DNA of 64,000 nucleotides from an uncultured Bacilli bacterium (GCA_947625505.1 CANQON010000003.1:35571-99570); one strand, 5' to 3'. Positions 30,304 through 55,567 are shown, counted from the first letter of the stretch. Numbers and translations are program-made. Notes: generated by a model from the letters alone, not told the origin.

Positions 30304-30304
30304 T

Positions 30305-39432: not shown

Positions 39433-40842
39433 ATGGATAATAACATATTTGAACAGATGGACTTTGGTCCACTACAACAATTTTTGGATAACGATGATGT
39501 TACCGATATTTCATATAGTAATGGTGGACAAATTTGGTTAAAAACTTTATCTCATGGTATTTTTAGAATTGAAAATCCTGATATAAACAATAGTTTCATG
39601 GAAAAGTTAGCTTTTCAATGTTCAAATGTTGTAGGTCATAGTTTCAATGCTGCTCATCCATTCCTCGATAGTGAGGATGCTGAGTTACGTATGAATTTTA
39701 TTCATGAGTCAATAGCTCGAAATGGTATAGCTTGTGTTATACGTAAAACACCTGCTAAGATACGTTTAGAGAAAGATAAAATAATTGCAGATAAGTATAT
39801 TACAGAGGATATCCATGATTTATTAATTCATTGTGTTCATGGACATTGTAATATCATTGTATGTGGAGAAACTGGTTCAGGTAAAACTGAGTTCGTTAAA
39901 TATTTAGCTTCCCATACAAGAGAAAATGAAAAATTAATAACAATAGAGGATACACTTGAACTTCACTTGGATCGTATTTATCCACATCGTGATATCGTTG
40001 CTATGAAAACTAATAACGTTGCTAGTTATTCTGACGTATTAGTTTCCTGCATGAGACAGAATCCAAAGTGGATATTACTTTCCGAGGTTCGTAGTGCTGA
40101 AGCTGTTACAGCAGCTCGTAACTCTATTTCTTCAGGACACTACATTTTGTCAACAATCCATGCTGATAAAGCATCATCTATACCTAACCGTATGTATAGT
40201 TTGATGGAAACAAGCCAAGATGTAGATCAGTTCTTGAAAACCATTTATCGATATATACAAATAGGAGTCTATATAAGAGGTTACCAAAGTAAGAAAACAC
40301 AACATTTTGTTCGTGAAATAGCTGAGGTTTGTGAATTTTATGTAGATGAAAATAATAATTGTAAAGAAAATATAATATATCGTAAAACACCTGATGGTAA
40401 GATTATTAAGCATCAACCTAGTCAACATTTAATTGATTATCTTGAAGCTCAAGGAGTATTATTACCAAAGGGATTAATTAAGGATGAAGAGATTGATACT
40501 GGCGAAGCATCAATTGATGTTGATACTGTTGATTCACCTGGTGGTATGAAAATAGAGGATTTTAATGAGGGAAAAGCTATGGACAAAGTTCCATCGAATG
40601 ATGAAAAAAGCAATGTAGTTAAACCTCCTGTGAATCCTTTGCCAACAACAAATAGTCAACCTACACCATCAATGAATGTAAGACAAATGCCTGTAGGAAA
40701 TACTAATATACCTAATAATGTTGGTTATAATCCTATGATGCAACCTAATACACAACAATATCAAGGCAATAGATTTATTAATCAATCTATGCCTAACGTA
40801 CGTGTAACACCTATGCCAGATCAAAATAACACAACTTCTTAG
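39433..40842 (+). CDS. CpaF/TadA-family secretion ATPase (VirB11 superfamily) with ~115-aa N/P/Q-rich C-terminal extension
   Basis: Walker A CGETGSGKTEF, ITIEDTLEL (Asp box), NPKWILLSEVR (Walker B region), LSTIHA (His box). Confidence 0.85.
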   Translation: MDNNIFEQMDFGPLQQFLDNDDVTDISYSNGGQIWLKTLSHGIFRIENPDINNSFMEKLAFQCSNVVGHSFNAAHPFLDSEDAELRMNFIHESIARNGIACVIRKTPAKIRLEKDKIIADKYITEDIHDLLIHCVHGHCNIIVCGETGSGKTEFVKYLASHTRENEKLITIEDTLELHLDRIYPHRDIVAMKTNNVASYSDVLVSCMRQNPKWILLSEVRSAEAVTAARNSISSGHYILSTIHADKASSIPNRMYSLMETSQDVDQFLKTIYRYIQIGVYIRGYQSKKTQHFVREIAEVCEFYVDENNNCKENIIYRKTPDGKIIKHQPSQHLIDYLEAQGVLLPKGLIKDEEIDTGEASIDVDTVDSPGGMKIEDFNEGKAMDKVPSNDEKSNVVKPPVNPLPTTNSQPTPSMNVRQMPVGNTNIPNNVGYNPMMQPNTQQYQGNRFINQSMPNVRVTPMPDQNNTTS

Positions 40843-40868
40843 TTGTTAGATATAGGAGGTGGAAATAT

Positions 40869-41774
40869 ATGTCTACTATACTTGTATTCGTAATAATAGC
40901 GGCAATTATGATATTCGTTATTATTTATCGTAATGCTAGTGGTGAAAATTTATATAAATATGTTGCTGAAAATACAACGTTCATTTATGATAAATTTGCA
41001 CCTTATACTTACAAATCTATTAGAGAAAAAGTTAAAGATTTAGGGCAAGATTATACAATTCACCAATATATAATGCAAGCTGTTGGGTTTGCCATTGGTG
41101 CAGCTGTAATATCTTACTTATATTTCTATAGTTTAATTATTTCGATAATATATGCCGTAGCAGCAGTATCTGTTATTCCTTATTTAAATTATTTACGTTG
41201 TAAAAGATTATATAGTGAATTTATTTTTGAACAAATTCAAGTCTATACATCTAATACAATAATGGAATTTGCTACTACGCAATCTTTTGTTAAATCACTT
41301 GAAGGTGTATATAATTCAGGTGTCTTAGAAGATCCTGTTAAAACAGATGTTAAAGTAATGATTGATATGGCTTATGAAAATGGTACAATTGATCAATCAT
41401 TAAGCTTTATGAGTACTAAATATGATTTCTATATGGTTAAGAATATGCATCAATTATTCTTACAAATCACTAATGAAGGTGCTAAGGATACAGCAGAATC
41501 TCTTGAAAATATGTCACAAGATATCGATAACCTTGTTGAAAATGTATATCGTGATAGACTTGATAGAGCTGCTTTCCATAAGAAGTTCTTACAATTTGGT
41601 ATAATCTTATACTTTATGTGTATGTTACTTCAATTTATGTTAGGTGCTGAAAAGTACGAAAATCTATTAGAGTTATGGTATGTAAAATTATTAATTCATA
41701 TAATTTTAATAGTTAATTCTTACTTCTTATTAAAGGGTGAGAAATATTATAATGAGAATGTAGGTGCTGAATAA
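40869..41774 (+). CDS. TadB-like (T2SS-F family) inner-membrane platform protein
   Basis: Topology is TM, TM pair, ~140-aa cytoplasmic helical domain, then 2 TM. Position is directly after the CpaF-type ATPase. Confidence 0.6.
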   Translation: MSTILVFVIIAAIMIFVIIYRNASGENLYKYVAENTTFIYDKFAPYTYKSIREKVKDLGQDYTIHQYIMQAVGFAIGAAVISYLYFYSLIISIIYAVAAVSVIPYLNYLRCKRLYSEFIFEQIQVYTSNTIMEFATTQSFVKSLEGVYNSGVLEDPVKTDVKVMIDMAYENGTIDQSLSFMSTKYDFYMVKNMHQLFLQITNEGAKDTAESLENMSQDIDNLVENVYRDRLDRAAFHKKFLQFGIILYFMCMLLQFMLGAEKYENLLELWYVKLLIHIILIVNSYFLLKGEKYYNENVGAE

Positions 41775-42559
41775 TGTGGTTTATAGTTATAGGTATAATA
41801 ATTGTCTTTATTTTGAATTATAACCGTGTTGTTGACACTAAAAAATTCATTAGTGATTCAGGAGGAGTTTTATCACATTTAGTTGAGGATGATTATGAAT
41901 TCTTACTATCTGTTAAATATCCTGGACGTAACTTAGATACAGGAGCATTATTTCAAAGAAGATTAAGAGATGGAATTATAGCTATTTTAGTTGGATTCTT
42001 TATCTTTATGAATCAAATGAATTTAATGTATGCTGTAATAGCTGTTGTTCTTGGCTATTTTGTATTTAAAGCTCCATATATGAACTTAAAAAGTTATTAT
42101 AAGGCTAACTTACATCATATTGATACAATGTTACCTTATTACTTAAAAAGCTTGGAAATATTAGTACAACACTATACAGTTCCTGTTGCTTTAAGCCGTA
42201 GTATTGATACAGCTCCAGAAGTATTTAGACCTGGACTTAGAAGACTAGTTGCTCGTATTGATAGTGGTGACTCATCTATTCAACCATATATCGATTTTGC
42301 TAATGAGTATCCTGTACGTGATTCAATGCGTATGATGCGTTTACTATATCGTTTAGGTTTAGGAAGTCAACAAAATAAACACGAGCAAGTAATGATGTTC
42401 TCTCGTACAGTTTCATCATTACAACAAAAAGCACGTGAACAAAAGTATAAAGAGCGTCTTGAAAAGATGGAAAATCAAACTTTAATCATGCTTGTCTTTA
42501 CAGGATGTGGTTGTATGGCTTTGATGTTCTTATCAATGATGCAATTAATGCAATTTTAA
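41774..42559 (+). CDS. TadC-like (T2SS-F family) platform protein
   Basis: TAATG overlap with the tadB-like gene. Same TM / cytoplasmic domain / TM layout. Confidence 0.55.
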   Translation: MWFIVIGIIIVFILNYNRVVDTKKFISDSGGVLSHLVEDDYEFLLSVKYPGRNLDTGALFQRRLRDGIIAILVGFFIFMNQMNLMYAVIAVVLGYFVFKAPYMNLKSYYKANLHHIDTMLPYYLKSLEILVQHYTVPVALSRSIDTAPEVFRPGLRRLVARIDSGDSSIQPYIDFANEYPVRDSMRMMRLLYRLGLGSQQNKHEQVMMFSRTVSSLQQKAREQKYKERLEKMENQTLIMLVFTGCGCMALMFLSMMQLMQF

Positions 42560-42567
42560 TAAAAAAG

Positions 42568-42597
42568 TTGAAAAATATGTAAATATTATGATATAAT
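42568..42597 (+). promoter_or_regulatory. Strong promoter TTGAAA-18-(TGa)TATAAT for the Flp-like pilin gene
   Basis: -35 at 42568..42573. Extended -10 TGATATAAT ends at 42597. RBS AAAGGTGGTGAGG and then the ATG at 42627. Confidence 0.7.
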
Positions 42598-42626
42598 CAG
42601 TTTATAAGGTAAAGGTGGTGAGGTAA

Positions 42627-42911
42627 ATGAAAGAAGCTGCTGGAGAAGCAAACTTAACTGTTGTTGCAATTATCTTAATTGCTGTAGTTGTTGCAGTTGC
42701 TACGCCATTAGTTAATAGTTTAATGTCAAACAGTGCTAAGAGATCATGTTGTACTGATGCTGGTGGTGTATGGCAAGGAGGATGTAAATATCCTAAAGGT
42801 GGAAATACTAATAATAATACAGGTATTAGTAATGGATACAAACAATGTTGTACTTCTGCTAATGTTAATAATGCAAACACTGCATGTGGTATGCAAGGAA
42901 CACAATCATAA
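42627..42911 (+). CDS. Atypical Flp-like pilin with Cys-rich C-terminal domain (94 aa)
   Basis: Short polar leader MKEAAG, then the hydrophobic helix EANLTVVAIILIAVVVAVATPLV, then a 6-Cys tail (CC..C..CC..C). It has its own promoter and terminator and occupies the usual flp position after tadC. Confidence 0.55.
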   Translation: MKEAAGEANLTVVAIILIAVVVAVATPLVNSLMSNSAKRSCCTDAGGVWQGGCKYPKGGNTNNNTGISNGYKQCCTSANVNNANTACGMQGTQS

Positions 42912-42921
42912 TTTAAAAATT

Positions 42922-42948
42922 AAACCTTTGATTTCAAAGGTTTTTTTG
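42922..42948 (+). terminator. Intrinsic terminator after the pilin gene
   Basis: AAACCTTTGA-TT-TCAAAGGTTT followed by TTTTGTG. Confidence 0.75.
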
Positions 42949-43062
42949 TGTAAAAGAATAAATATTAGTTACATACAATTAACATTTAATTATTGCTTAT
43001 TATTTTATTTAATGTTATAATAAATACGTATAAATAGGTAAGAATAAAATGGAGGAATACTC

Positions 43063-43569
43063 ATGAGAGAAAGTATAGGAACAGTTTCACTTTTAAATTT
43101 TATTATATTTTTTATTCTATTAGTATTCGCTTTTCTTGCTGGATCTCTAAGCTATTATAAAGCGTATCGTGTAAATAATGCTATTGTATCCTCAATTGAA
43201 AAGTTTGAAGGATTTAATCCTATGTCATATGAAGATATGGAACAAAAATTAGTAGATTTTGGTTATGAACGTGTTGATTTTAGCTGTCCTGTTGATTATA
43301 AAAATTCACATGGTGAAGTTGCATACCTAGTTGATAATACTGGTGCACGTGTTACAAATTCATCTAATTATAATTATGGCTATTGCATTTATCGTTATGA
43401 AAATGATACTATTTATAAGGGGTATAATACTAGTACCTTAGCAACTACTGATAAATATGATTCATACGAAGTTATGACATTAATTAAATTTGATTTCCCT
43501 GTAATAGGAAGTATACTTCGATTAAGAGTTTCTTCTAGAACAGGACGTATATTCTATTTTTCAGATTAG
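43063..43569 (+). CDS. TadE/TadF-like minor pilin-like protein
   Basis: N-terminus MRESIGTVSLLNFIIFFILLVFAFLAG. Position after flp as in tadZABC-flp-tadEF loci. Confidence 0.45.
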   Translation: MRESIGTVSLLNFIIFFILLVFAFLAGSLSYYKAYRVNNAIVSSIEKFEGFNPMSYEDMEQKLVDFGYERVDFSCPVDYKNSHGEVAYLVDNTGARVTNSSNYNYGYCIYRYENDTIYKGYNTSTLATTDKYDSYEVMTLIKFDFPVIGSILRLRVSSRTGRIFYFSD

Positions 43570-43582
43570 ATGAGGTGAAGTC

Positions 43583-44044
43583 ATGAAAGAATCGATTGCA
43601 CAAGCATTTATCTTAAATTTAATATTATTTTTCTTTGTTATATTAGTTTTACTTTTATTTGGATCAATTAATTATTCAAAAGCTTATAAAGCTAAAAATA
43701 GAATAATTACAATTATTGAAAAATATGGTACTTTTAATAGTAATGCACAAGATGAGATTGAAGAAAATTTAGCTAGAGCAGGTTATCAAACAACAACAAA
43801 TAATCAAGGCTGTTATGATATTGCTTCTAAAGAAAGTAATGGACATGTAGTTTTTCCAACAACAAGTAGTAATGCAGTTCGTCAATATCATTATTGTGTT
43901 ATTGAACATGATGGTACTATTGAAAATTCTAAATATTATCAAGTCGTAACATATATGGAGTTTGATATTCCTATAATTGGAGGATTATTAGAATTCCCAG
44001 TTAGAGGAGAAACAAAGGTTTTATATAATAATTTAGGCAATTAA
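43583..44044 (+). CDS. TadE/TadF-like minor pilin-like protein
   Basis: N-terminus MKESIAQAFILNLILFFFVILVLLLFG. The C-terminal block (F/M)(D/E)FP(V/I)IG resembles the previous gene. Confidence 0.45.
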   Translation: MKESIAQAFILNLILFFFVILVLLLFGSINYSKAYKAKNRIITIIEKYGTFNSNAQDEIEENLARAGYQTTTNNQGCYDIASKESNGHVVFPTTSSNAVRQYHYCVIEHDGTIENSKYYQVVTYMEFDIPIIGGLLEFPVRGETKVLYNNLGN

Positions 44045-44060
44045 TAAGAAGGGTGATAAA

Positions 44061-45041
44061 ATGAATGTTATTGTTTCTAATAAATATCAATTAATGCTAG
44101 AGAATTTAGGAATTGATGTTATAAAGAATTTAAATGGTGAGTATGATGTTGATGAAATTATTAGTACATTTCAAAATTTCTTCTATCAAAGAATGATCTT
44201 AGATATTACAGCAATTAGAAACTATAAAGATATCAGAAATTTACAAAAACTATCAATTTCCCTTGATATGGATAAGGTAATACTATTATTGGATGATTCC
44301 CCTGAAAGTTCATCACCTGCATATCTTTCTAAATTAATTTCTATGGGAATATATAATTTCACAAGAAATTTGGAGGGAATTCAATACTTATATAATCATC
44401 CAAATTCATATCGTGATGTTGCACAATTTCATCAAATTGATGATGTTGTTGTTGTTCAACAACCTAATTCTCAACCACAACAACCAGTATATGTTGAACA
44501 ATACTCTGGTGGAGGACAACATAGCCGTATTATTGGTGTTAAAAATGTAACTAAAAGTGCAGGCGCTACAACATTAATTTATATGATGTATAATGAGTTA
44601 GCACGTAATTATAATGTTACAGCTATTGAGGTTGATAAAACAGACTTTGCATATTTAAAAGATAATACATTAGTATCTGCCATAAGTGGTACAATAATGC
44701 AAGAAGTAAGTCGTTTTACAACTAGTGATGTTATTTTAATAGATGTAAATAATAGTGTTCAAGCTGAATCTTTATGTAATGAAATTATATATTTGATTGA
44801 GCCTACAACTATAAAATTAAATAAACTTATGATGGTTACGCCACAGGTTCTTAAAACAATAAAGGATAAAAAGGTTATATTAAATCAAAGCTTACTAAGC
44901 TCTAAAGATGTTTTGGATTTTGAATATGAATCTAGATTAAAAATATTCTATAATATGCCACCTTTAGATGAACGTGAAACAAGAAATAAAATGTTGAATG
45001 ATTTCTTAGTTCGCTTAGGGTTTGATTTACAAGCAAAATAA
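44061..45041 (+). CDS. TadZ/CpaE-like protein (pseudo-receiver N-domain + degenerate MinD/ParA ATPase domain)
   Basis: The N-terminal ~110 aa are receiver-like, followed by a Gln/Pro linker. The P-loop position reads GVKNVTKSAGATT, compared with KGGVGKTT, so the GK[ST] lysine is lost. Confidence 0.5.
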   Translation: MNVIVSNKYQLMLENLGIDVIKNLNGEYDVDEIISTFQNFFYQRMILDITAIRNYKDIRNLQKLSISLDMDKVILLLDDSPESSSPAYLSKLISMGIYNFTRNLEGIQYLYNHPNSYRDVAQFHQIDDVVVVQQPNSQPQQPVYVEQYSGGGQHSRIIGVKNVTKSAGATTLIYMMYNELARNYNVTAIEVDKTDFAYLKDNTLVSAISGTIMQEVSRFTTSDVILIDVNNSVQAESLCNEIIYLIEPTTIKLNKLMMVTPQVLKTIKDKKVILNQSLLSSKDVLDFEYESRLKIFYNMPPLDERETRNKMLNDFLVRLGFDLQAK

Positions 45042-45068: not shown

Positions 45069-46367
45069 ATGAGTAAGAGATTAATGAAAACTATTGTTCT
45101 AATAGTTTTTGTCGTATTTTTTGGCATGAAGAATGTTCATGCTGGAGTATTTAAGACATGCTTATACACTAGTGGAAGCAAAAGTGTATCTATGACTATC
45201 AATGATTCCTTTAAAAATGCTAAGGTTAGTGAAAGTAGCTTTGGTGATTTCAAAGGCGTTGTAAACTGGGAAAAGTATATAAAAAATGCTACTGGAAAAG
45301 AATTTGGACAAGTAGCTACTTTTTTAGGACAAAAGTTTTTTTTAGATAATGGTAAGAAGTGTCCACCAATAGCTATTGCTGTTCAATATACCGCAAATAG
45401 ATATTTATATTTATCGGATAACAATAGTAAGCAATCCATTCTTAGTGATGCTGAAAAAATGCGAGGTAGTGTATTTGGTTGGAAACCTGGTACTTATGAG
45501 GTTACTGAAATGTCATTAGCTCAAGAAATACAAGGTGACGATTATTATGATGATGGAAGTAATGATAATTCAAATAGTCAAGTAACTGCAAAAACGTGTA
45601 AATGTTCCGGTAAGTCAAATGGAGTTAGAGTATCTGTAAAATTTAAGGTAACACCAAATTTAGTAGAACCACGTCCTACCATTGTATGGAATGGTAATAA
45701 TAATGATGAAAATATATCAAATTGGTCTAATCCATTAGAAAGTTCAACATATACTTATTTACAACATTTAGCAAAAAGCGATTCATGCCCAGATTATGCA
45801 ATAGTTGGACATGATGTACAGTATAAACTTGCAGTAAGTGATTCAGCAAATAAAAGCTCTGTGGAACAAGGAATGCATGACAGAGGGTATTCAAACGTAT
45901 ATACCGTTGCTTGTGAACAGCAAACACAAAGCGAAGAGTCAGAGCCTGAAAAGCCTACTACTCCTTCAAATCCTGAATATGTTGACCCAGGGGTTGAGCC
46001 TGGAGTAATTGGAAATTTACATACTTCTATAGATACATATAGTTGTGGAGATAATTTTATTACTGGTATACCATCAAAGTTAATATCTACTACAAGATTT
46101 ATATATAATTTTATTCAAGTGTTAGTACCTGTAGTATTGGTTATCTTGGGAATTTTAGATTTAGTAAAAGCAATTGCAGGTCAAAAAGAGGATGAAATTA
46201 AGAAGGGACAACAAATTTTTATAAAAAGAGTTATTGCAGCTATTGTTGTATTCTTTGTATTTGCTATCGTAAAATTAGCTATCAGCCTTATAAATGTTGG
46301 TTCTCAACCAATTATTGAATGTGTAGAATGCTTCTTATCATCTGATAGTTCTTGTATATTGGAGTGA
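45069..46367 (+). CDS. Family member A: secreted variable domain + Pro-rich linker + conserved C-terminal TM-hairpin (VirB2/TrbC-like) module
   Basis: Signal peptide ends NVHA/G. C-terminal module: VPVVLVILGILDLVKAIAGQKEDEIKKGQQIFIKRVIAAIVVFFVFAIVK...CVECF. Start is taken at the ATG at 45069 (RBS GAGGTG). Confidence 0.65.
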   Translation: MSKRLMKTIVLIVFVVFFGMKNVHAGVFKTCLYTSGSKSVSMTINDSFKNAKVSESSFGDFKGVVNWEKYIKNATGKEFGQVATFLGQKFFLDNGKKCPPIAIAVQYTANRYLYLSDNNSKQSILSDAEKMRGSVFGWKPGTYEVTEMSLAQEIQGDDYYDDGSNDNSNSQVTAKTCKCSGKSNGVRVSVKFKVTPNLVEPRPTIVWNGNNNDENISNWSNPLESSTYTYLQHLAKSDSCPDYAIVGHDVQYKLAVSDSANKSSVEQGMHDRGYSNVYTVACEQQTQSEESEPEKPTTPSNPEYVDPGVEPGVIGNLHTSIDTYSCGDNFITGIPSKLISTTRFIYNFIQVLVPVVLVILGILDLVKAIAGQKEDEIKKGQQIFIKRVIAAIVVFFVFAIVKLAISLINVGSQPIIECVECFLSSDSSCILE

Positions 46368-46371
46368 TAAT

Positions 46372-46896
46372 ATGAAAAAATTTATTATATTATTATTGTT
46401 TGGAATACTTTGTTATTCAGTATGCTTTACTAATGTTTATGCACGACCTGTAAGTCAAGTTGAGATTAATGATGGTGGTGGAGGAGAAACATCTACTACA
46501 CCTGAAAAAAAATCTAATGCTGATTTTATGTCAAGACAAGGATATGTTAGCTGTGGAGGAGATCAACCATTGATTAATAAAATCCCTTCTATTATTCCAA
46601 AGATAGCATCTAATATTTTACGTATAGTCATGGTTGCTGTACCTGTAATACTTGTATTGCTTGGAATGATTGATTTAGTAAAAGGCTTAATGTCTCAAAA
46701 AGAAGACGAAATTAAAAAAGGAAGAGAATCTTTGACTAAACGTACAATAATGGGAATAGTTGTTTTCTTAATAGTATTAATAGTAAAAGTATTTGTAAAT
46801 TTTTTAGGCGGAGCAGATTCAGCTAGAATTGCTTCTTGTATTGATTGCTTTGTTAATAATGAATGTGGTACGTATGTTGCAACCACAACTTCATAG
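46372..46896 (+). CDS. Family member B: short variable domain + conserved TM-hairpin module
   Basis: Signal peptide ends NVYA/R. Module: VPVILVLLGMIDLVKGLMSQKEDEIKKGRESLTKRTIMGIVVFLIVLIVK...CIDCF. Confidence 0.65.
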   Translation: MKKFIILLLFGILCYSVCFTNVYARPVSQVEINDGGGGETSTTPEKKSNADFMSRQGYVSCGGDQPLINKIPSIIPKIASNILRIVMVAVPVILVLLGMIDLVKGLMSQKEDEIKKGRESLTKRTIMGIVVFLIVLIVKVFVNFLGGADSARIASCIDCFVNNECGTYVATTTS

Positions 46897-46914
46897 TTAA
46901 AAGGAGATATAGTA

Positions 46915-47319
46915 ATGAAAAAATATTTAAGTTATGTTATTGTTATTTGCATTTGTTTGTTTGCTTGTTGCTATAATGTTAATGCTTTTACTTGTGAAGC
47001 TTTTAATGGAGTAAATATAGATGATCAGTTGGCTTTAATAACAAAAAATGTTATACTTATATTGCAATTACTAGTACCTATAATTTTAGTTGTTATAGGA
47101 TTAGTAGATTTGGTCAAAGGAATATCTGCTCAAAAAGAGGATGAAATTAAGAAAGGTCAACAAGTTTTTGTTAAAAGATTAATTGCTGCAGTTATTGTAT
47201 TCTTTGTAATAGCAATTGTAAAATTTGTTATAAGTGCTGTGGCAGGAGGATCATCAAGTTCCATAATGAGTTGTGCTAATTGTTTTATTAAAGGTGCCGA
47301 TGATCAAAATTGTAAATAG
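46915..47319 (+). CDS. Family member C: minimal form (134 aa)
   Basis: Signal peptide ends NVNA/F. Module: VPIILVVIGLVDLVKGISAQKEDEIKKGQQVFVKRLIAAVIVFFVIAIVKFVISAVAG...CANCF. Confidence 0.7.
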   Translation: MKKYLSYVIVICICLFACCYNVNAFTCEAFNGVNIDDQLALITKNVILILQLLVPIILVVIGLVDLVKGISAQKEDEIKKGQQVFVKRLIAAVIVFFVIAIVKFVISAVAGGSSSSIMSCANCFIKGADDQNCK

Positions 47320-47330
47320 GAGGATTATGT

Positions 47331-47780
47331 ATGAAACAAAAAAAGATTGTATTATTAATATTAGTTGCTGTGATTAGCTTATTTGCTTTACAAACTAATG
47401 TATATGCAGATGTATATTGTTCAATTGTGCCTGATGCTGTTATTGATGATTCTATTGCTGATGCTGTGCATACCATTATTAGAATCATTCAAATTGCTGT
47501 ACCAATTATTTTAGTTGTACTTGGTATGATTGATTTCCTTAAAGCATTAATGGCTCAAAAGGAAGATGAAATTAAAAAAGGTCAACAAATTTTTATTAAA
47601 AGAGCTATTGCTGCAATTATCGTTTTCTTTGTAATAGCAATTGTAAAGTTTGTTATAAGTGCTGTTGCTGGAACTGATAGTAGTGATATTATTAATTGTG
47701 CTAATTGCTTTATAGAAGGATCAAACTCTCCTTCATGTCAATCTACAAGTAGTGGCGATGCTGATGCTGATACAATGTAG
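47331..47780 (+). CDS. Family member D: minimal form (149 aa)
   Basis: Signal peptide ends NVYA/D. Module: VPIILVVLGMIDFLKALMAQKEDEIKKGQQIFIKRAIAAIIVFFVIAIVKFVISAVAG...CANCF. A 41-nt stretch at 47625..47665 is 40/41 identical to 47200..47240 in member C. Confidence 0.7.
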   Translation: MKQKKIVLLILVAVISLFALQTNVYADVYCSIVPDAVIDDSIADAVHTIIRIIQIAVPIILVVLGMIDFLKALMAQKEDEIKKGQQIFIKRAIAAIIVFFVIAIVKFVISAVAGTDSSDIINCANCFIEGSNSPSCQSTSSGDADADTM

Positions 47781-47796
47781 TTAATGGAGTGATTAA

Positions 47797-48987
47797 ATGA
47801 AAAAGATAAATAAAAAACCTCTTATAATAATTGGTGGATTATTTGGCGTTATTATTTTAATAATTATTATTGTAGCGTTAGTGCGTTCATGTGGTGGGCC
47901 AGGTTCTAACTATGAAAAAACAGAAAGGGCAATGGTAACAGCTGCCTCTAAATATTTTAATCAAGAGGGTAATTTTTTACCTAATGAATTTGAAAGTAAA
48001 GAGGTATCAGCTGTAGAATTAGCTTCTTCTGGAGCTATGAAACCTTTATCTGAGCAATTAAAAGATGCTACATGTACTGGTAGTGTTAAAGTATATAATC
48101 AAGGTGGTCAGTATTTATATTTACCTATACTTAATTGTACGGAATATAAAACACAATTATTAAAAGATAAAATTATTTCTGATAATATGGTTGAGAGTAC
48201 ATCAGTAAGTGATACTACTGATGAGGTAACTGATGAGAGTACTTCTGTTGATGAAGAAACAACTAGTAGTGAAAACCAAACCGATAATGAAGATAATAAT
48301 TATACTTCTGGACTTTATCAAGTAGAAAGTAATTATGTTTTCAGAGGAAAAAATCCAAATAATTATTTATCATTTGGTGGTATCATTTGGAGAATAATTG
48401 ATATTGATGCTAATGGATTAATTAGAGCTATCAAAAATGAATCTGAAACACGTGCTATTTATTGGGATACCAAATTTAATTCTGATGCTAGTAAGGCATA
48501 TGGAATAAATGATTATAAAAATAGCTATATTTTAGAAACAATGAATAATGAATATCAAAAATTTAAAGATGAAAACAAACTTCATTTAGCGCCATTTAGT
48601 GTTTGTATTGGAAAAAGAGATGCCAATGATTTAAGAATTGATTATAGTATTGATTGTGCTGAAACATTAGAGAATCAATATATTGGAATTATTGATAGTT
48701 CTGATTTTTCAAGAGCTTCATTAGATAGAAATTGTACTAAAATAACTAATGGGGCATGTACAAACTATAATTATCTAACAAATGTAACTGGTGAAACTTG
48801 GACTTCAACAGGATTAACTAGAAATACATATGAGGTTATTTATATCAATGGTGGCATTGCTGCTGCTATGAATGCGCGTAGGACAGCTAACTATAATTGG
48901 GTAATAGCTTTCCAGGGCGAAGAAAAATATATTTCTGGCGATGGAACAATTTCAAATCCTTATTTAATTGGTTCTAATGCTAGTTAG
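47797..48987 (+). CDS. N-terminally anchored extracytoplasmic protein (396 aa), function unknown
   Basis: TM segment LIIIGGLFGVIILIIIIVALV, an acidic Ser/Thr/Asp/Glu linker, and a Cys-containing C-terminal domain ending GDGTISNPYLIG. Confidence 0.5.
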   Translation: MKKINKKPLIIIGGLFGVIILIIIIVALVRSCGGPGSNYEKTERAMVTAASKYFNQEGNFLPNEFESKEVSAVELASSGAMKPLSEQLKDATCTGSVKVYNQGGQYLYLPILNCTEYKTQLLKDKIISDNMVESTSVSDTTDEVTDESTSVDEETTSSENQTDNEDNNYTSGLYQVESNYVFRGKNPNNYLSFGGIIWRIIDIDANGLIRAIKNESETRAIYWDTKFNSDASKAYGINDYKNSYILETMNNEYQKFKDENKLHLAPFSVCIGKRDANDLRIDYSIDCAETLENQYIGIIDSSDFSRASLDRNCTKITNGACTNYNYLTNVTGETWTSTGLTRNTYEVIYINGGIAAAMNARRTANYNWVIAFQGEEKYISGDGTISNPYLIGSNAS

Positions 48988-48994
48988 TAATTTA

Positions 48995-49023
48995 TTGACA
49001 AAGATTGACAGTTATAGTATAAT
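48995..49023 (+). promoter_or_regulatory. Consensus promoter TTGACA-17-TATAAT
   Basis: TTGACA at 48995..49000, exact 17-nt spacer, TATAAT at 49018..49023, 26 nt before the ATG of member E. Confidence 0.8.
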
Positions 49024-49049
49024 CGATTTAAGAGAGAGGGATGTGTTAA

Positions 49050-49454
49050 ATGCTTAATATGATTAATGTTTTGGATACTATTAATACTAAGTCTACATAT
49101 ACTTGTGGTAGTGCTGGTATTGAATTTGGTGGAATGCTTCCAAATGCTGTATCTCTTATAATTAAGGCTATTTGGATTATTGTACCAATACTTTTAGTTA
49201 TTTTTGGTTTATTAGATCTTGCTAAAGCTGTTATGGCTCAAAAGGAAGATGAAATCAAAAAAGGACAACAAACTTTAATTAAGCGTGTTATTGCTGCAGT
49301 TATAGTATTCTTTGTAATTTTCATCGTTCAAACAGTTGTAAGATTTGTTTCAGGTGAAGATGATACCGTAATGAGTTGCTTCAATTGCTTTGTTAATGGC
49401 GAAGTAGGAAATAATGGATGTAGCTTAGTTCAAGGAAACTCTGCAGGATTATAA
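49050..49454 (+). CDS. Family member E: monocistronic, no classical signal peptide (134 aa) - candidate major subunit
   Basis: Module: VPILLVIFGLLDLAKAVMAQKEDEIKKGQQTLIKRVIAAVIVFFVIFIV...CFNCF. Flanked by a consensus promoter and a strong terminator. Confidence 0.7.
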   Translation: MLNMINVLDTINTKSTYTCGSAGIEFGGMLPNAVSLIIKAIWIIVPILLVIFGLLDLAKAVMAQKEDEIKKGQQTLIKRVIAAVIVFFVIFIVQTVVRFVSGEDDTVMSCFNCFVNGEVGNNGCSLVQGNSAGL

Positions 49455-49462
49455 TATTGGTG

Positions 49463-49492
49463 AAAAAACTATTTATTTAATAGTTTTTTTTT
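49463..49492 (+). terminator. Intrinsic terminator after member E
   Basis: AAACTATT-TATTT-AATAGTTT followed by a T-run. A possible extended -10 TGTTATAAT (49492..49500) for the next gene follows immediately. Confidence 0.75.
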
Positions 49493-49533
49493 GTTATAAT
49501 ATTGATAGTAGATTGTCTAATTAGAGGTGGATT

Positions 49534-50688
49534 ATGCATAAAAAAAGTTTTTGGACTTTATTGATGTTTTTTGTTATGTTTTTTATTAGTATAAATAAAG
49601 TAGAAGCAACTGCTTTTAAGTGTGTTTATGGAATTGATAGCGGTTCAGGATGGGAAAAAAAACTTACTTTTTCTATTGATGACGTAAATGGCTTCAAAAA
49701 TGAACATATCGAAGAACCTGACTCTCCAATTATTTCAGATTTTTATATTGTTGATTTTGAATCTGTTGATAATGAAGATTATAATTATATAGGATATGAT
49801 GATGATTCGATTTTTACAGTTAAAGATAAGTTTGAATTTTATGTTTCTTTATACCCAAATAAAACGGCTTATAATATGTTGATGGAAAGAAGTGGAAAAG
49901 AAAGATGCCCTTCAGTATTACATTATACGATAAGATCTGAAGTTGGAGCTATTCATAATGCTTGGCAATACTATATTAAAATTTTTAATGATTCGTTAGA
50001 TGAACCAGATGAACATTTTTCGTGGTGGAGAAGAAAAACTGGAGAATTAGATGCTGATATTAAAAATAAATTTTCTGTTTCTTTTGATCCAGAAGGATAT
50101 TTTGTGGAAGAATCTGTAAAAGATAAAAAATTAGAGGATTTAGTTGATAATCGTGATTGTATGACATATTCATATGCAATTCAAGGAATAAGAACAGCGG
50201 CTGAAAGTAACGAGACAGGCTGCGATAATAATATTGAATTTAATAAAATATATTCTGAAATTGAATTGATGTGTGAAAACTATCGAGCTACGGCATTATA
50301 TGCGGAGGATAGTAATTCATCTGTAGTAGCAAAGTCTTGTAGTAAAGCTTGCAGTATGCTTAAAGATGATGTTGCTGAAATTTGTCAAGTAGATGCAACA
50401 AATGGATATTGTGGATCTCTTGGAAATAAAATTGTCAACTGGATTTTTAGAATGGTTAGAATAGTTAGATATGCATTACCTGCTTTATTAATTATTTTAA
50501 GTATTCTAGATTACATTAAAGCACTTGCTTCTGATAGTGAAGATGAAATGAAGAAAGTAACTAATAGATTTGTAAAGAGACTTATTGCTGCAGCTATTGT
50601 ATTTATAGTACCTTTCATCTTAGACTTTGTATTAAATATATTCAGTATTCCAGGCTTGAATGCTGATAATCCATTTTGCGCTGAATAA
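49534..50688 (+). CDS. Family member F: large Cys-containing variable domain + divergent TM-hairpin module
   Basis: Signal peptide ends KVEA/T. Module: LPALLIILSILDYIKALASDSEDEMKKVTNRFVKRLIAAAIVFIVPFILDF...FCAE. Confidence 0.6.
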   Translation: MHKKSFWTLLMFFVMFFISINKVEATAFKCVYGIDSGSGWEKKLTFSIDDVNGFKNEHIEEPDSPIISDFYIVDFESVDNEDYNYIGYDDDSIFTVKDKFEFYVSLYPNKTAYNMLMERSGKERCPSVLHYTIRSEVGAIHNAWQYYIKIFNDSLDEPDEHFSWWRRKTGELDADIKNKFSVSFDPEGYFVEESVKDKKLEDLVDNRDCMTYSYAIQGIRTAAESNETGCDNNIEFNKIYSEIELMCENYRATALYAEDSNSSVVAKSCSKACSMLKDDVAEICQVDATNGYCGSLGNKIVNWIFRMVRIVRYALPALLIILSILDYIKALASDSEDEMKKVTNRFVKRLIAAAIVFIVPFILDFVLNIFSIPGLNADNPFCAE

Positions 50689-50708: not shown

Positions 50709-52871
50709 ATGGAATTTGTAATTGATACAATTAGAATGCTATTCTTTTCCATAGATAAAATTGTTTATGGTTTGATAGATGATGTATATTCTTTATTGTT
50801 ACAGCTTGCTAGAACATCTATTTTCTCTCAAAGTGCTATTCATCAATTTTCAGAAAGAGTATATGCACTTGTTGGAATATTTATGCTATTTAAAGTTTCT
50901 GTATCATTGATTAATTATGTATTAAATCCAGATGATTTTACAGATAAAGATAAGGGATTTTCATCTATTGTTAAACACGTTATATTAGCTTTAGTTTTGA
51001 TTGTTTTAGTACCTTACATATTTAACGAAGCTTTTGAATTACAATCAATAATTTTAGAGGAAAATACAATTATGAATGTTGTATTTGGATCTCCTGCAAG
51101 TAGAGATTCCTCTATGCCTAAGACATCTAATAGTAGTTATGCAGAGTCGGCGGGGCAAAAAATTCAGTTTACTGTGGCTTATGCTTTTGCTCAACCAAAT
51201 TATGAAGAATTTTTTAATGATAGTAAATATGACTTAGCAGATTGCCAGGAAACATATGACACTATACCTAGTGGTCAAGAAGGTGCTGGAGATTACAAAT
51301 TTAGGCAAAAACCAACTTTTGGATCTGAATCTGGAGGAAAATCACAATTTATATATGAATTAAGGCCTTCATGCTGGGGGGTATATGATTCTGAATCTGA
51401 TACATATTCAGCTGATGGAGAGAATGGACAGTTAGCTTCATTGTTTGAAGATAATGATTATGAAATTATATATCAAAACTATGCTCAAGGAGTTGCTCAG
51501 CAAAGTTTTAATATGTTCTTTATTAAAGACGTTATGAGAGCTAAAGAGCAGGGGGTAGAAAATGCTAGATATTTAGTTAACTATAAATTTGGAATTAGTA
51601 CAGCAGTAGGAGTTGGAGTAATTTATTTACTATTAATGTTCTGTATTGATATCGCTGTACGATCAGTTAAATTAGGCTTCTTACAAATGATAGCGCCTAT
51701 TCCAATTCTATCTTATGTTGATCCTAAATCAGGTAAAGATGGAATGTTCAAAAAATGGACAGATATGTGTGTAAAAACTTATTTGGAATTATTCATGAGA
51801 TTATTTGCTCTATATTTTGGCATTTATGTTATTAGTTTAGTAGGAACATTTAGAGATGTTGTTACTGGTGAAATAGTGTCAGGTTGGACAGTTTCAATCT
51901 TTATGATTATTGGTATTTTAATCTTTGTTAAAAAATTACCAGAAATTCTTAAAGAAGTTCTTAATATTAAATCTGATGGCAAATTTACATTTAATCCACT
52001 TAAAAAACTTGAAAATGATGCTATTGGAGGTAAATTCTTAGCTGGTGCTGGTAAAAAAGCAGTAGGATTAGCTAAAGGTGTTGGAGCAGCTGGACTTGTT
52101 GGTACAGCAGGCTTAGTGACTGGACAAGGTTTCAGATTAGGTGCGATGGGTAAAGCTGTTGCAGGTGGATTTAGAGGAGATAAATTTGGTAAAAACTTTG
52201 CATCTTCTTATGGAGCTGCACGTGCACGTAGAAAACAAATAGATGAAATGCGTGATGATGGAGTTAGTCCATTGGCAGTTGAATTAGAAAAAGCTAGAAA
52301 TGTCTTTAGAGGACAATCTCCTGCTGAACATATTAAGGCTGTTAGCGGTGGCTTAAAAGCCATTCAAGATGATTATGCACAATATGAAAAAGTTGCAGCA
52401 GGCGTAGATAAAATAGCTAAGGATCTTGATAAACGTCGTAAAGCTGCAGAAGCTGCTGGTGATTATGAAGCAACTAAAAAATGGTCTGATGCATTTGATG
52501 CTCGTGTAAAACAAATTGCACAAAACAAAGGTCGTATTGTAACTAATAGTGAAGGATTTACTATTAATGAGCATGCAAGAAAGCCAGAAGATATGTTTTC
52601 ATTTACTGCAGATGCAACTTATGCTGATAACGCTGCATTACAGAACTTAGCTAGTCATATGGCTGGCCTTGCTAGTGAAATGAATAAAAATGCTGCACAT
52701 ATGGATGGATACCAACGTGTTGAGGTTGAAAAGACAGCCGATGGCGGATTGGTTAACATTAAGGATGTTAAGAATCAGGCACAAGGCTCTCAACAATCTA
52801 TCGATACCAATGCTGCTACACGTCATGCAAACGATATGGACAAATATACAGGTGGAACGAAAAAGAAATAA
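50709..52871 (+). CDS. VirB6/TrbL-like polytopic membrane protein with Gly/Ala/Lys-rich and charged C-terminal tail
   Basis: Multiple TM segments in the first ~430 aa. The Gly-rich segment GGKFLAGAGKKAVGLAKGVGAAGLVGTAGLVTGQGF follows. Position is between pilin-like genes and VirB3/VirB4, as for VirB6. Confidence 0.45.
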   Translation: MEFVIDTIRMLFFSIDKIVYGLIDDVYSLLLQLARTSIFSQSAIHQFSERVYALVGIFMLFKVSVSLINYVLNPDDFTDKDKGFSSIVKHVILALVLIVLVPYIFNEAFELQSIILEENTIMNVVFGSPASRDSSMPKTSNSSYAESAGQKIQFTVAYAFAQPNYEEFFNDSKYDLADCQETYDTIPSGQEGAGDYKFRQKPTFGSESGGKSQFIYELRPSCWGVYDSESDTYSADGENGQLASLFEDNDYEIIYQNYAQGVAQQSFNMFFIKDVMRAKEQGVENARYLVNYKFGISTAVGVGVIYLLLMFCIDIAVRSVKLGFLQMIAPIPILSYVDPKSGKDGMFKKWTDMCVKTYLELFMRLFALYFGIYVISLVGTFRDVVTGEIVSGWTVSIFMIIGILIFVKKLPEILKEVLNIKSDGKFTFNPLKKLENDAIGGKFLAGAGKKAVGLAKGVGAAGLVGTAGLVTGQGFRLGAMGKAVAGGFRGDKFGKNFASSYGAARARRKQIDEMRDDGVSPLAVELEKARNVFRGQSPAEHIKAVSGGLKAIQDDYAQYEKVAAGVDKIAKDLDKRRKAAEAAGDYEATKKWSDAFDARVKQIAQNKGRIVTNSEGFTINEHARKPEDMFSFTADATYADNAALQNLASHMAGLASEMNKNAAHMDGYQRVEVEKTADGGLVNIKDVKNQAQGSQQSIDTNAATRHANDMDKYTGGTKKK

Positions 52872-52888: not shown

Positions 52889-53218
52889 ATGAATGGATAT
52901 TTAATACCAGCCAATTCAAAAAAATCAATGTTAATATTTGGGCTATTTAATAAAAATGATTTAATTATATTTGGACTTGGTGTTGGTGTATCACTACTAC
53001 TTTTGATGTTATTACCAGTAGATGAGCTATTATATGCAATAATAGCCATCTCTCCTGGTATTATTACTGGGGTATTAGTTATACCGATACCTAACTATCA
53101 TAATATAAGAACAATAATTAGATTAGCCTATGAATTTTATACAACTAGACAGCAATTTGTATGGAAAGGTTGGTGCTTTAACGATGGCGACGAAACAAAA
53201 AAGCAAATATACAAATGA
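52889..53218 (+). CDS. VirB3-analogue (TcpE/PrgI-like) small two-TM protein
   Basis: 109 aa with two adjacent TM helices (LIIFGLGVGVSLLLLMLLPV / AIIAISPGIITGVLVIPIP). It overlaps the start of the VirB4 N-domain gene. Confidence 0.5.
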   Translation: MNGYLIPANSKKSMLIFGLFNKNDLIIFGLGVGVSLLLLMLLPVDELLYAIIAISPGIITGVLVIPIPNYHNIRTIIRLAYEFYTTRQQFVWKGWCFNDGDETKKQIYK

Positions 53219-53735
53219 TGATATTCCTGTAAAGAGTATTACTAATGGAGTAATATATCTAGAAGGTAAACAAAATTTAAAAGTAACTGGAGTAAAGATT
53301 ATGCCTAGAAATATCTTTATTCTTGATCCTAATATGCAGGATGCAATTATTAGTAATTTAAAAACTGTTTATAATGTAATTGATTATGAATTTTGGATTA
53401 TTGTTGCTGATAGACCTGTTGATATAAATGTTTATCTTTCAGAGTTAGAGCTTTTATATAATAGAACAACAGATCCTGCTAGAAGAAAAATTATTAATCA
53501 AGATTTAAGCAAAGCTAATATGTTTATGAATAACAATGTTGTTGATACTGAGTATTTCTTATTATTTAAAGAGCGTGATGATGATTTAATTAATAAGAGA
53601 ATTAGAAATTTAATTAACAATTTTGCTAATGCTGGTTTAACAGCATTTCAAACAACTAATGATGATTTAAGAATGATATTAGATAACTTCTTAAATGGTG
53701 GAGTTACTACTAATTTTGGGACGGTGTTATCATGA
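53184..53735 (+). CDS. VirB4-family N-terminal domain, encoded as a separate ORF
   Basis: IPVKSITNGVIYLEGKQNLKVTGVKIMPRNIFILDPNMQDAIISNLKTVYN resembles the N-terminus of Gram-positive VirB4/TraE/Orf16-type ATPases. ATGA overlap with the ATPase ORF. Start is taken at MATKQK. Confidence 0.55.
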   Translation: MATKQKSKYTNDDIPVKSITNGVIYLEGKQNLKVTGVKIMPRNIFILDPNMQDAIISNLKTVYNVIDYEFWIIVADRPVDINVYLSELELLYNRTTDPARRKIINQDLSKANMFMNNNVVDTEYFLLFKERDDDLINKRIRNLINNFANAGLTAFQTTNDDLRMILDNFLNGGVTTNFGTVLS

Positions 53736-55519
53736 TGGATATTAAAAGCCAAATAGCGCCTAAAGGCTTAGAGTTTAAACCCGCTGAATTTGTCATTAGT
53801 GACAAGTATGCAACAATATTAACAGTTATTAGTTATCCAAAATATATTTATCCAGGATATTTATCATCACTTACTTCTATGTCAGGAATTAAGCTTGTAA
53901 TCAAGCATATTCCTCTTCCTTTTAGTACAATTCAAAAAATGTTAAACAAGGAAATAGCTGATTTAAAGGTTAGATATCAAGAAGAAAATGATAGAACTAT
54001 TCAGGAAAGAATTAAACAAGATTATGCATCTTTGGAACAATTTGTTTCAGAGTTAGCTGCCTCACAAGCTAAAATATATGATTTTCAAATGCATATTATG
54101 ATTACTGCTAATTCTGAAGATGAATTAGTAATTAAGAAATTACAATTAAAGAATTATCTTGAAGCAATGGAGATGCGTGCTATTCCTCTTCGCTTTGAAC
54201 AAGATAAAGTATTAAAATCAATGCTTCCTATTTATGAGAAGCAAGAAATAGAAGATCGAATTGGTACTCCTATTCCAGCACCTACAATGGCTGCTATGTA
54301 CCCATTTATCTTTGATAGTATTAAAGACCCTGGACTATCTACTTTATTAGGCATAGATTTTTCAGGAGGAGTAATTCTATTTAATCAATTCTTATATCAA
54401 ATAAGAAAAGAGCATAATAGAAATAATGCTAATATGGTTATCCTAGGTACTTCTGGTAGTGGTAAATCTACAGCTGCTAAGTTACTCTTAAGAGCTCATA
54501 TTAGAAATAATTATCAATTAGTTGTTATCGACCCTGAAGGTGAACTAGAAGATATGTGTAACCTTTATGGTGGAGACTTCATTAGCCTTGGAAAAGGTGG
54601 ACAATTCGGTATGATTAACCCATTAGAGGTTGTCATGGATGTTGATGAAGAAGAAATTAAACAAGGTCTTGGATATACGACATTTACTAGAACAATTCAA
54701 TCAGTAAAAGCTTTCTTAAAATATTATGATCCTTCTATTGAAGAGGATGTTCTAAATATGTTTAGTGAAGTTGTTCAAGAAACCTATAGACGTTTCAATA
54801 TTAATTTTGATACGGATTTTACAAAGTTAACGGCTAGGGATTATCCAACATTCAAGGATGTTTATGCAACTATTAAAGGTAAATTATTATCTATGCCTGA
54901 AAGAACACAAGAGAGAGATATACTTGAAAAACTAGAATTAAAAATAAGACCAATTGTTAAAGAGTTAAGATATTACTTTGATGGACATACAACTATCACA
55001 ACTAATAGTGATTTTATAGTATTTAATATTAAAGAGTTAATGAATTCAGATGAAAATATACGTAATGCTTTATTCTTTAACGTATTAAAATATGCATGGA
55101 GTTTAACTCTTGATGTTAAAAAGAATACTGTTTTGACAGTTGATGAAGCTCATGTATTATTAAGTAATCAAAACGTATTAGGTGCAGATTTCTTAGCACA
55201 AATTCAAAGACGTGCAAGAAAATATAATACAGGTACAATAATTATTACACAACAACCTACAGATTTCTGTGATCCTGCTGTTATTACTCAAGGTAAAGCT
55301 ATATTTGATAATGCTTCTTATTACTTAGTAATGGGATTAAAGAAACAAGCTGCAACTGATTTAGCTCGTTTAATTGACTTAAATGAGAGTGAAATAGAGA
55401 GTATTAAAAAGTATGGTCAAGGAGAAGCTTTATTTGTATGTGGAAGCCGAAGAATGCGTATTAATGTTGTTGTAACTGATGAAGAATTAGATTCATTTGG
55501 TCGTGGAGGGGGACTATAA
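53732..55519 (+). CDS. VirB4-family T4SS ATPase (C-terminal ATPase part)
   Basis: Walker A ILGTSGSGKSTAAK, Walker B VLTVDEAHVLL, then IIITQQPTDF. The combined size with the preceding ORF is about 780 aa, typical of VirB4. Confidence 0.85.
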   Translation: MMDIKSQIAPKGLEFKPAEFVISDKYATILTVISYPKYIYPGYLSSLTSMSGIKLVIKHIPLPFSTIQKMLNKEIADLKVRYQEENDRTIQERIKQDYASLEQFVSELAASQAKIYDFQMHIMITANSEDELVIKKLQLKNYLEAMEMRAIPLRFEQDKVLKSMLPIYEKQEIEDRIGTPIPAPTMAAMYPFIFDSIKDPGLSTLLGIDFSGGVILFNQFLYQIRKEHNRNNANMVILGTSGSGKSTAAKLLLRAHIRNNYQLVVIDPEGELEDMCNLYGGDFISLGKGGQFGMINPLEVVMDVDEEEIKQGLGYTTFTRTIQSVKAFLKYYDPSIEEDVLNMFSEVVQETYRRFNINFDTDFTKLTARDYPTFKDVYATIKGKLLSMPERTQERDILEKLELKIRPIVKELRYYFDGHTTITTNSDFIVFNIKELMNSDENIRNALFFNVLKYAWSLTLDVKKNTVLTVDEAHVLLSNQNVLGADFLAQIQRRARKYNTGTIIITQQPTDFCDPAVITQGKAIFDNASYYLVMGLKKQAATDLARLIDLNESEIESIKKYGQGEALFVCGSRRMRINVVVTDEELDSFGRGGGL

Positions 55520-55567
55520 TTATCCTCCTCTTATTAAATATTAACTTGTTTGAAAGATGGTGTAAAA

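Follow-up and report, generated by a model that had tools for sequence, protein, structure and literature searches.

The question raised by a 64,000-nucleotide (nt) stretch of DNA from an uncultured Bacilli bacterium (GCA_947625505.1, CANQON010000003.1:35571-99570; the whole stretch is hereafter called the window) is whether a group of genes sharing a C-terminal membrane hairpin encodes the pilin subunits of a type IV secretion system (T4SS). The + strand at 45069-50688 was found to contain seven open reading frames (ORFs), six of which (A-F) ended in a common C-terminal module of ~95-105 residues with two transmembrane (TM) helices. A preliminary description had interpreted the module as a pilin-type hairpin and the genes as possibly a multi-subunit or phase-selectable pilin set not known to be described anywhere. 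By analogy with known systems, the six genes probably encode PF18895-related VirB2-type pilin-like subunits of a monoderm T4SS, which would be stacked into a tube crossing the cell wall. Our results supported a multi-subunit set and spoke against phase selection.

The six genes and their common module

The ORFs of the array were as follows.

45069..46367, + strand: member A, 432 amino acids (aa) from the ATG, with a signal peptide, a ~300-aa Cys-containing ectodomain and the C-terminal hairpin module
46372..46896, + strand: member B, 174 aa, with a signal peptide, a ~45-aa low-complexity linker and the module; it has its own orthologue clade
46915..47319, + strand: member C, 134 aa, signal peptide and module
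47331..47780, + strand: member D, 149 aa, signal peptide and module
47797..48987, + strand: X396, 396 aa, not a family member, with an N-terminal membrane anchor and a ~360-aa outside domain
49050..49454, + strand: member E, 134 aa, without signal peptide, the most conserved member
49534..50688, + strand: member F, with a signal peptide, a ~270-aa two-domain ectodomain and a divergent module

The positions of the six members agreed with the preliminary description, and so did the ORF lengths except for A, for which 435 aa is obtained when counting from a GTG at 45060; gene calls of public contigs use the 432 aa counted from the ATG at 45069. The module consists of TM1, a charged turn, TM2 and a Cys-containing tail. 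In the module alignment, a P, an L, a D and a K of TM1 were invariant. The turn showed the consensus Q-K-E-D-E-I-K-K-G-Q-Q-x-F-x-K-R, with E-D-E-x-K-K and the K-R ahead of TM2 invariant, and the tail contained CxxCF and one more Cys, with one tail Cys invariant and F keeping a single one. Pairwise comparisons of the modules showed 28-63% identity, C and D being the closest pair and F the most distant member, as previously noted. A hidden Markov model built from the six modules recovered exactly A-F, and nothing else, in the window. Signal peptides ending in N/K-V-[HYNE]-A were confirmed in A, B, C, D and F, and were absent from E and likewise from its orthologues.

The six-module profile retrieved more than 4,000 proteins of a 90%-identity collection, nearly all of them unnamed and without Pfam annotation, as well as, among 50%-identity clusters, 9,248 representatives with E<=1e-3 (4,098 with E<=1e-10). 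A conserved Cys ~20 residues ahead of TM1, together with the CxxC(F) and a further Cys after TM2, was present in 143 of 145 diverse representatives of this family. Extra domains were found N-terminal to the module in 77 of the 145 and C-terminal to it in 12, and extensions at either end fit a topology with both ends outside the cell.

A scan of one genome per species detected 78 related loci, which carried between one and eight module genes each. The N-terminal parts of the paralogues are unrelated to each other, as had been claimed, since BLAST matches of each N-terminal part were confined to its own orthologues. Orthologues of A were found in at least nine loci, with ectodomains 24-38% identical to that of A; the ectodomains of A and F both showed this range of identity between orthologues, compared to 58-88% for the modules, or 52-85% for those of A and F. 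The ectodomain of F contained about four conserved Cys pairs capable of forming disulfides. In the AlphaFold2 model of D (predicted local distance difference test, pLDDT, 72), a helical hairpin (residues 40-74 and 78-111) with a three-residue turn was followed by a short CxxC-bearing C-terminal helix, and the C-terminal end of the F model (pLDDT 85, predicted TM-score 0.72) was the same hairpin. Foldseek searches with the F model gave no fold match, the best E-value in BFVD being 0.06; CorA, the best PDB match (E=0.05, TM-score 0.15), was rejected as a relative because it merely combines a soluble domain with two C-terminal TM helices. PDB sequence searches with A, X396 and the VirB6-like protein encoded downstream of F gave no matches.

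X396 was embedded within the array in 35 loci and was 44-64% identical to its orthologues, which is above the values for the A and F ectodomains. X396 matched nothing in Pfam, NCBIfam or PDB, and no homologue with known function turned up. Most strain-level single-nucleotide polymorphisms (SNPs), as well as a 6-nt indel, were located in the N-terminal half of X396.

Probable family of the module and proposed assembly of the subunits

Pfam scans of every window ORF of at least 90 aa showed that PF18895 (T4SS_pilin) was matched over nearly the whole 71-position profile by five members, with E-values from 4.9e-4 to 0.028. These were E (E=4.9e-4, 20.6 bits, positions 12-70, i.e., 59/71), F (E=6.9e-4, 20.1 bits, positions 3-71 of 71), A (E=0.0016, 18.9 bits, residues 342-403), B (E=0.025, 15.1 bits) and D (E=0.028, 14.9 bits); C gave a weak match to CagC only and none to PF18895. 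This was the sole secretion-related family matched so broadly, by five of the six members and by 62 of 106 small relatives. The homologue P0174, which was found with full-length F (E=2.5e-20), scored 32.2 bits on PF18895 and thus above its gathering threshold of 26.6; it showed 43% identity to the F module (E=7e-27) and an hhalign probability of 99.5 against the six-module profile. A PF18895 annotation was carried by none of the top 120 family matches and by one of 61 F homologues (P0174). The rule published for VirB2-like proteins asks for i-E<0.001 and a match covering >50% of the profile (PMC12102498); by this rule, E and F would be counted as VirB2-like, and A, B, C and D would not.

The genomic position pointed in the same direction. 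The array preceded genes for VirB6, a PrgI/VirB3-like protein and VirB4 in 60 of the 78 loci, and in the window F ended 20 nt before the VirB6-like gene that lies directly downstream; F was always the member next to VirB6. VirB2-like pilins have been delimited by a mature size of 50-150 aa, two TM helices joined by a short charged loop that faces the cytoplasm in the membrane state, a gene near virB6, a pilus-like helical assembly on a VirB6 pentamer and a requirement for transfer (ter Beek et al., 2025). The precursors of B-E were 134-174 aa long with two hydrophobic helices, A and F exceeded the size range owing to their ectodomains, and F adjoins the VirB6-like gene. Since P0174 scored above threshold, E and F count as VirB2-like under the published rule and the position before VirB6-VirB3-VirB4 was conserved, the PF18895 assignment was lifted above noise. 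The classification of the module as a putative VirB2-type pilin-like hairpin of a monoderm T4SS is supported by these comparisons. The VirB2 part of the pilin interpretation was thus retained on the basis of PF18895, P0174, position and topology; Maff2 (PF12750), the other family suggested, was absent from all Pfam outputs even at E<=1.

Of the six members, E was distinguished by its expression signals:

48995..49023, + strand: perfect sigma-70 consensus promoter (TTGACA-17-TATAAT), 27 nt ahead of the E start codon
49462..49494, + strand: terminator-like hairpin just after E, a 12-bp AU-rich stem followed by a U-run (-11.7 kcal/mol, z=-4.2)

Two perfect sigma-70 consensus sites were seen in the 64 kb, compared to 0.27 expected. 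Promoter matches of at least 11/12 within 110 nt upstream were present for 34 of 37 E-class genes, compared to 2.9% of 973 other ORFs, 0/37 F-class genes and 0/30 B-class genes. Similarly, a downstream hairpin with a T-run followed 37 of 38 E-class genes, compared to 0-40% in the other classes. A conserved promoter and terminator is the pattern expected of a major pilin gene, and we read E as the candidate for the major, abundant subunit and A-D and F as likely minor subunits.

Besides, a near-palindrome, AAAACTATT…AATAGTTTTT, occurred twice, within the signal-peptide codons of A (45087-45110) and in the terminator-like hairpin of E (49464-49488). The two copies are probably a coincidence in AT-rich sequence.

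By analogy with solved Gram-negative pili and the model of PrgF, the mature hairpins would insert into the membrane in such a way that their two ends face outwards and the turn QKEDEIKKGQQxFxKR faces the cytoplasm, an orientation that we infer from the K/R excess and from the presence of Cys at each of the other ends. The hairpins would then be recruited and extracted by the VirB6 platform, the product of the gene immediately downstream, and stacked into a tube across the cell wall; the charged turn would form the lining of the lumen, and the N- and C-terminal segments would be exposed on the surface. E would provide the bulk of this tube, and A-D and F may join the assembly as sub-stoichiometric subunits through the same hairpin. 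VirB5 has a tip or initiator role in Gram-negative systems, and the ectodomains of A and F could plausibly act in its place, in partner recognition as tip or lateral adhesins or as initiators. The Cys before TM1 and the Cys after TM2 probably form a staple between the two outside ends, which would stand in for the head-to-tail cyclisation of the T-pilin and TrbC.

Several observations weigh against a pilin assignment. All window proteins scored 11-20.6 bits and hence below the PF18895 gathering threshold, and TM-rich decoys (DUF621, GPCR families) were matched about as often as PF18895 in 106 or 146 relatives; DUF621 and others matched as often at similar E-values, so that the Pfam signal alone is close to compositional noise. 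PF04956 (TrbC/VirB2), likewise named in the preliminary description, was matched by none of the six at E<=1 and by 5 of 106 relatives at E<=0.05. A 106-member profile gave no match at E<=10 to PDB sequences, and a Foldseek search of PDB with the D model found no pilin (best E=3), neither a solved conjugative pilin nor the archaeal CedA1/TedC also named in the preliminary description; two-helix hairpins are poorly discriminated, and such searches are uninformative for a hairpin this small. The promoter and terminator argument for E is one of consensus matching. Besides, a ~300-aa ectodomain on every subunit could not be packed in a VirB2-type helix, and A and F can therefore not be bulk subunits.

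In another explanation, the hairpin is a mere membrane anchor and docking module, and the family would consist of surface proteins kept in the membrane beside VirB6 (a channel collar, a wall-spanning stalk or adhesin anchors), with no extruded filament. Large outside domains are common in the family (median length of the 145 representatives 222 aa, 30 of them at least 300 aa), no conjugative pilus has been seen by electron microscopy on a Gram-positive cell, and a structural match to solved pili was lacking. However, nearly every locus contains one small and highly conserved member flanked by a consensus promoter and a terminator, which is what marks a bulk structural subunit; the turn is charged and does not vary, like the loops lining the lumen of pili, and labelling data on PrgF favour extrusion in a related class of systems. 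We consider this explanation possible but unlikely.

Relatives, inheritance and stability of the array

The 78 loci were nearly all from metagenome-assembled genomes of uncultured Bacilli, Tenericutes, Mollicutes or Bacillota, from the guts of rabbit, human, mouse and ruminants, and one was located on a closed chromosome of 1.49 Mb. The lineage may be RF39-like; placement in RF39 was not confirmed. In the closest loci the order A, B, C, D, X396, E, F was reproduced exactly, and the minimal loci contained one small and one large member or two small members.

A neighbour-joining tree of the modules from nine genomes showed six clades, one for each position, with C and D as sister clades and F as the deepest. 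The E clade had the shortest branches, with 65-88% identity to orthologues. One orthologue clade per position indicates that the paralogues predate the species and that there is no concerted evolution. The identity of C and D over 40/41 nt (47200-47240 versus 47625-47665) that had been described was confirmed, but not its interpretation as a recent duplication or gene conversion. The stretch falls where the codons of the two modules, 81% identical overall, are most conserved, and is therefore not strong evidence of a recent event. Recent conversion between C and D was rejected from the tree; D was closer to its orthologue in a related locus (L003; 79% identity) than to C (65%).

The array was collinear and 98.9-100% identical on eight contigs from different metagenome samples (19 carry the gene), and B, C and D contained 5 SNPs in total over six of the metagenome contigs. 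The N-terminal parts, unrelated between paralogues as reported above, are not hypervariable in the population sense. Inverted-repeat switches or recombinases were not found at the array. These results bear on the idea that the array is an antigenically variable or phase-selectable repertoire, from which the interchangeable pilins are drawn one by one. Divergent paralogues in tandem (28-63% identical) and fast-evolving ectodomains in A and F would be expected under such an idea, which has also been raised for the arrays of Patescibacteria (candidate phyla radiation, CPR). Against it stand the orthologue clades across nine genomes, the collinear and nearly identical contigs, the few SNPs in B-D and the lack of invertible repeats or a recombinase; moreover, E alone among the members has a strong promoter, and the members differ in architecture and are therefore not interchangeable. 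Phase variation was rejected on the basis of the contigs, the SNPs and the missing switch, and a variable repertoire in general is very unlikely.

The genes scpA/scpB adjoined the block of envelope genes containing the array in eight loci of different species, namely the window and seven others with modules ~43-54% identical to the query module. The same scpAB neighbourhood despite this low identity supports a fixed chromosomal site and vertical inheritance. The window showed housekeeping flanks: to the left htpG, bacA, tRNA-Leu, yfhO and scpB-scpA, and to the right nfeD/SPFH. Neither relaxase nor integrase domains were detected among its ORFs of at least 90 aa, and no homologue of the MobP3 relaxase of Bacillus thuringiensis plasmid pBMB67 was detected in the 78 loci. 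An origin of the present locus as an integrative and conjugative element (ICE) or plasmid was rejected because of the housekeeping flanks, the missing relaxase and integrase and the recurring scpAB site. No near-identical DNA was found in plasmids, and a tblastn search with D against 72,556 plasmids gave no match. Since the locus is chromosomal, at a fixed position and without a detectable relaxase, contact-dependent exchange is likelier than self-transfer or transfer of a mobile element, and the apparatus, passed on vertically in the chromosome, would more likely serve contact and exchange between cells.

Neighbouring genes and comparison with known systems

The array was found inside a 34-kb + strand block of envelope genes, of which the following were assigned.

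38087..45041, + strand: Tad-type pilus module, upstream of the array, in the same order in 47-69 of 78 loci
42627..42911, + strand: Flp/type IV-like pilin of 94 aa within this module (MKEAAG/EANLTVVAIILIAVVVAVA…), with a Cys-rich tail
50709..52871, + strand: VirB6/TrbL-like polytopic membrane protein (PF19597 TrbL_4, E=2.2e-5), after the array in 60 of 78 loci
52889..53218, + strand: PrgI/VirB3-like small membrane protein, weak match to PF12666, at the position of the annotated PrgI-family gene of pBMB67
53130..55519, + strand: split VirB4 ATPase, with a 201-aa N-terminal gene (53130-53735) and a 595-aa ATPase gene (53732-55519)
55550..57601, + strand: CHAP-domain cell-wall hydrolase (VirB1 role; PF05257, E=1.6e-8)
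60368..62521, + strand: VirD4-type coupling protein (PF02534, E=1.5e-57)

The Tad module encodes a DUF5411 protein, CpaB/SAF, a CpaF-type ATPase, two TadB/C-like polytopic membrane proteins, the Flp-like pilin, two TadE-like pseudopilins and a TadZ-like protein. The Flp-like pilin, which the preliminary description had not listed, gave no family match; its gene was preceded by an 11/12 extended -10 promoter (42568-42597) and followed by a terminator-like hairpin (42922-42943). Downstream of the array, the VirB6-like protein showed a ~300-aa hydrophilic Ala/Gly/Lys-rich C-terminal extension and is thus of the 'extended VirB6' type. VirB4, located 3 kb downstream of the array, showed 29% identity to the VirB4 of the B. 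thuringiensis plasmid. Its two gene halves overlap by 4 nt, the 201-aa gene overlaps the PrgI-like gene as well and matched positions 98-276 of the Mycoplasma ICE VirB4 model NF045975, and the split was kept in 56 related loci and in pBMB67. A SpoIID/peptidase-C39 protein was encoded between the CHAP hydrolase and VirD4.

That the family serves the upstream Tad-type pilus, or is an unrelated family of small membrane proteins travelling with the locus, is scarcely credible: in 69 loci the array comes right after the TadZ-like gene and the Pfam matches are below threshold and mixed with spurious TM families, but the Tad module owns a Flp-like pilin and pseudopilins with single N-terminal helices, the array occurs with VirB6-VirB4 (L032, L052, L062) or adjoins VirB4/VirD4 (L045/L063) in loci without detectable Tad genes, P0174 passes the PF18895 threshold, and the positional analogue in pBMB67 has VirD4 and TrbL as its neighbours and is well away from the Tad genes.

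Further genes of the window were observed to the left of the Tad module. The locus always begins, directly beside scpA, with a polytopic membrane protein of 533 aa and a secreted protein of 226 aa that has a C-terminal anchor (28702-30973); these were present in 26-32 loci. Two paralogous secreted Cys-rich proteins of 1146 and 1090 aa (31077-34517 and 34605-37877) share a C-terminal block (…DVVFRTIDLIN…ERAFPGR…PQYHIELT) without Pfam match. This pair, present in just 2-5 of 78 loci, is a variable insert between the locus head and the Tad module, and the two proteins are possible adhesins. At the left edge of the window, a defence cluster (2-3655) encodes an AIPR protein that runs off the window, together with a C5 cytosine methylase and a restriction enzyme of the AspBHI-N/Mrr type.

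The apparatus is clearly related to the conjugation machinery of the pXO2/pBMB67 type. In pBMB67, VirD4, a 126-aa hairpin protein, TrbL, PrgI and a split VirB4 are encoded in this order, and a separate DUF5411-SAF-TadZ-CpaF module is present as well. The 126-aa protein, annotated as 'hypothetical protein' (13649-14029 of the plasmid sequence, our locus L079), shows a signal peptide, a two-helix hairpin and a charged loop, and is probably the VirB2-like pilin of the plasmid. Its hhalign probability against the module profile was 0.1, so that homology is not demonstrable despite the same architecture and position. The NCBIfam search of the array gave only weak matches to a pilin-like family of Mycoplasma ICEs, the Mbov_0395 family NF045849 (13-21 bits compared to a cut-off of 40; E=0.047 for D and 1.9e-4 for the pBMB67 protein). 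This family likewise consists of an 80-aa hairpin protein of a T4SS, in Mollicutes, but is a single gene on a mobile element and forms no array.

Several tandem, sequence-variable copies in one T4SS locus are also known from Bartonella Trw and Anaplasma VirB2. Those arrays consist of Gram-negative TrbC/VirB2 (PF04956) pilins and are thought to give host-range or antigenic variation, whereas the paralogues of the present array are ancient, architecturally distinct and stable.

In Gram-positive plasmids, PrgF is a VirB2-like pilin essential for transfer of pCF10, and one two-TM VirB2-like protein has been predicted beside virB6 in 95% of plasmid classes, including pXO1 and pXO2 (bioRxiv 10.64898/2025.12.18.695078). 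The present members resemble these as small two-TM proteins with a short charged loop, encoded beside virB6. Unlike the plasmids, which have one functional pilin and a relaxase, the present locus contains six conserved paralogues at a fixed chromosomal site, and no relaxase was found. Ectodomain fusions were not reported for the plasmid proteins, and no VirB5 analogue was found there (bioRxiv 10.64898/2025.12.18.695078).

The closest parallel in design was found in Patescibacteria, where 2-11 VirB2-like genes lie beside a MPF_FATA-like, relaxase-less chromosomal T4SS; the six-gene VirB2-like array of Candidatus Southlakia epibionticum is essential (PMC12102498; PMC12857230). Shared features are tandem divergent genes for two-helix pilin-like proteins, near virB4 and virB6 of a monoderm-type T4SS and sometimes with a non-pilin gene between them (here six genes, 28-63% identical, with X396 intervening), detection by PF18895, and a chromosomal position with no relaxase nearby (here within the 64-kb window and, for MobP3, within the 78 loci). 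In both cases the monoderm host also encodes a type IV-filament pilus, and for the present lineage the related loci point to small genomes. In contrast to CPR, the host belongs to a Bacillota/Bacilli-type gut lineage, the T4SS and a Tad cluster are physically fused, two of the members have ectodomains of ~300 aa and VirD4 is present. The family also appears tighter and distinct, with its QKEDEIKKGQQ turn and Cys staple, and lies mostly below the PF18895 threshold.

A review of December 2025 stated that VirB2-type pilins are absent from Gram-positive T4SSs except those of Patescibacteria and that the CPR pilin array is unique among monoderms (PMC12857230). The general idea of VirB2-like arrays and monoderm pilins is already known, from Patescibacteria and from Gram-positive plasmids, respectively, and to this extent the claim that nothing of the kind had been described did not stand. 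The sequence family and its size, the fusions of ectodomains to a pilin module, the Tad fusion at a fixed chromosomal site and the host lineage were not found described in the literature searched, which included PMC12102498, PMC12857230 and bioRxiv 10.64898/2025.12.18.695078. The locus shows the same array design, previously known only from ultrasmall parasitic bacteria, in a second monoderm lineage, from the guts of humans and other animals, and in a family that is very large and unnamed (>9,000 clusters). Beyond the work on plasmids and CPR, it offers a clear candidate for the major subunit, recognisable by its conserved promoter and terminator, and proteins that combine the pilin module with large outside domains are natural candidates for the tip or adhesin component of a monoderm T4SS.

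More speculatively, the Tad and T4SS genes together may form a domesticated contact-and-exchange organelle of uncultured gut Bacilli, in which E would form the wall-crossing tube, while A, F and hundreds of longer relatives with ectodomains would select the partner cell as tip adhesins or initiators and would be the missing VirB5 analogue of monoderm systems, and which would be homologous to or convergent with the apparatus of epibiotic Patescibacteria. We put this forward as a doubtful extension of the pilin reading. If it is true, these abundant gut lineages would be attached to other bacteria in life and would feed from them, and if the apparatus is used for partner attachment, E, F and VirB6 would provide a handle for cultivating and imaging lineages that have never been grown.

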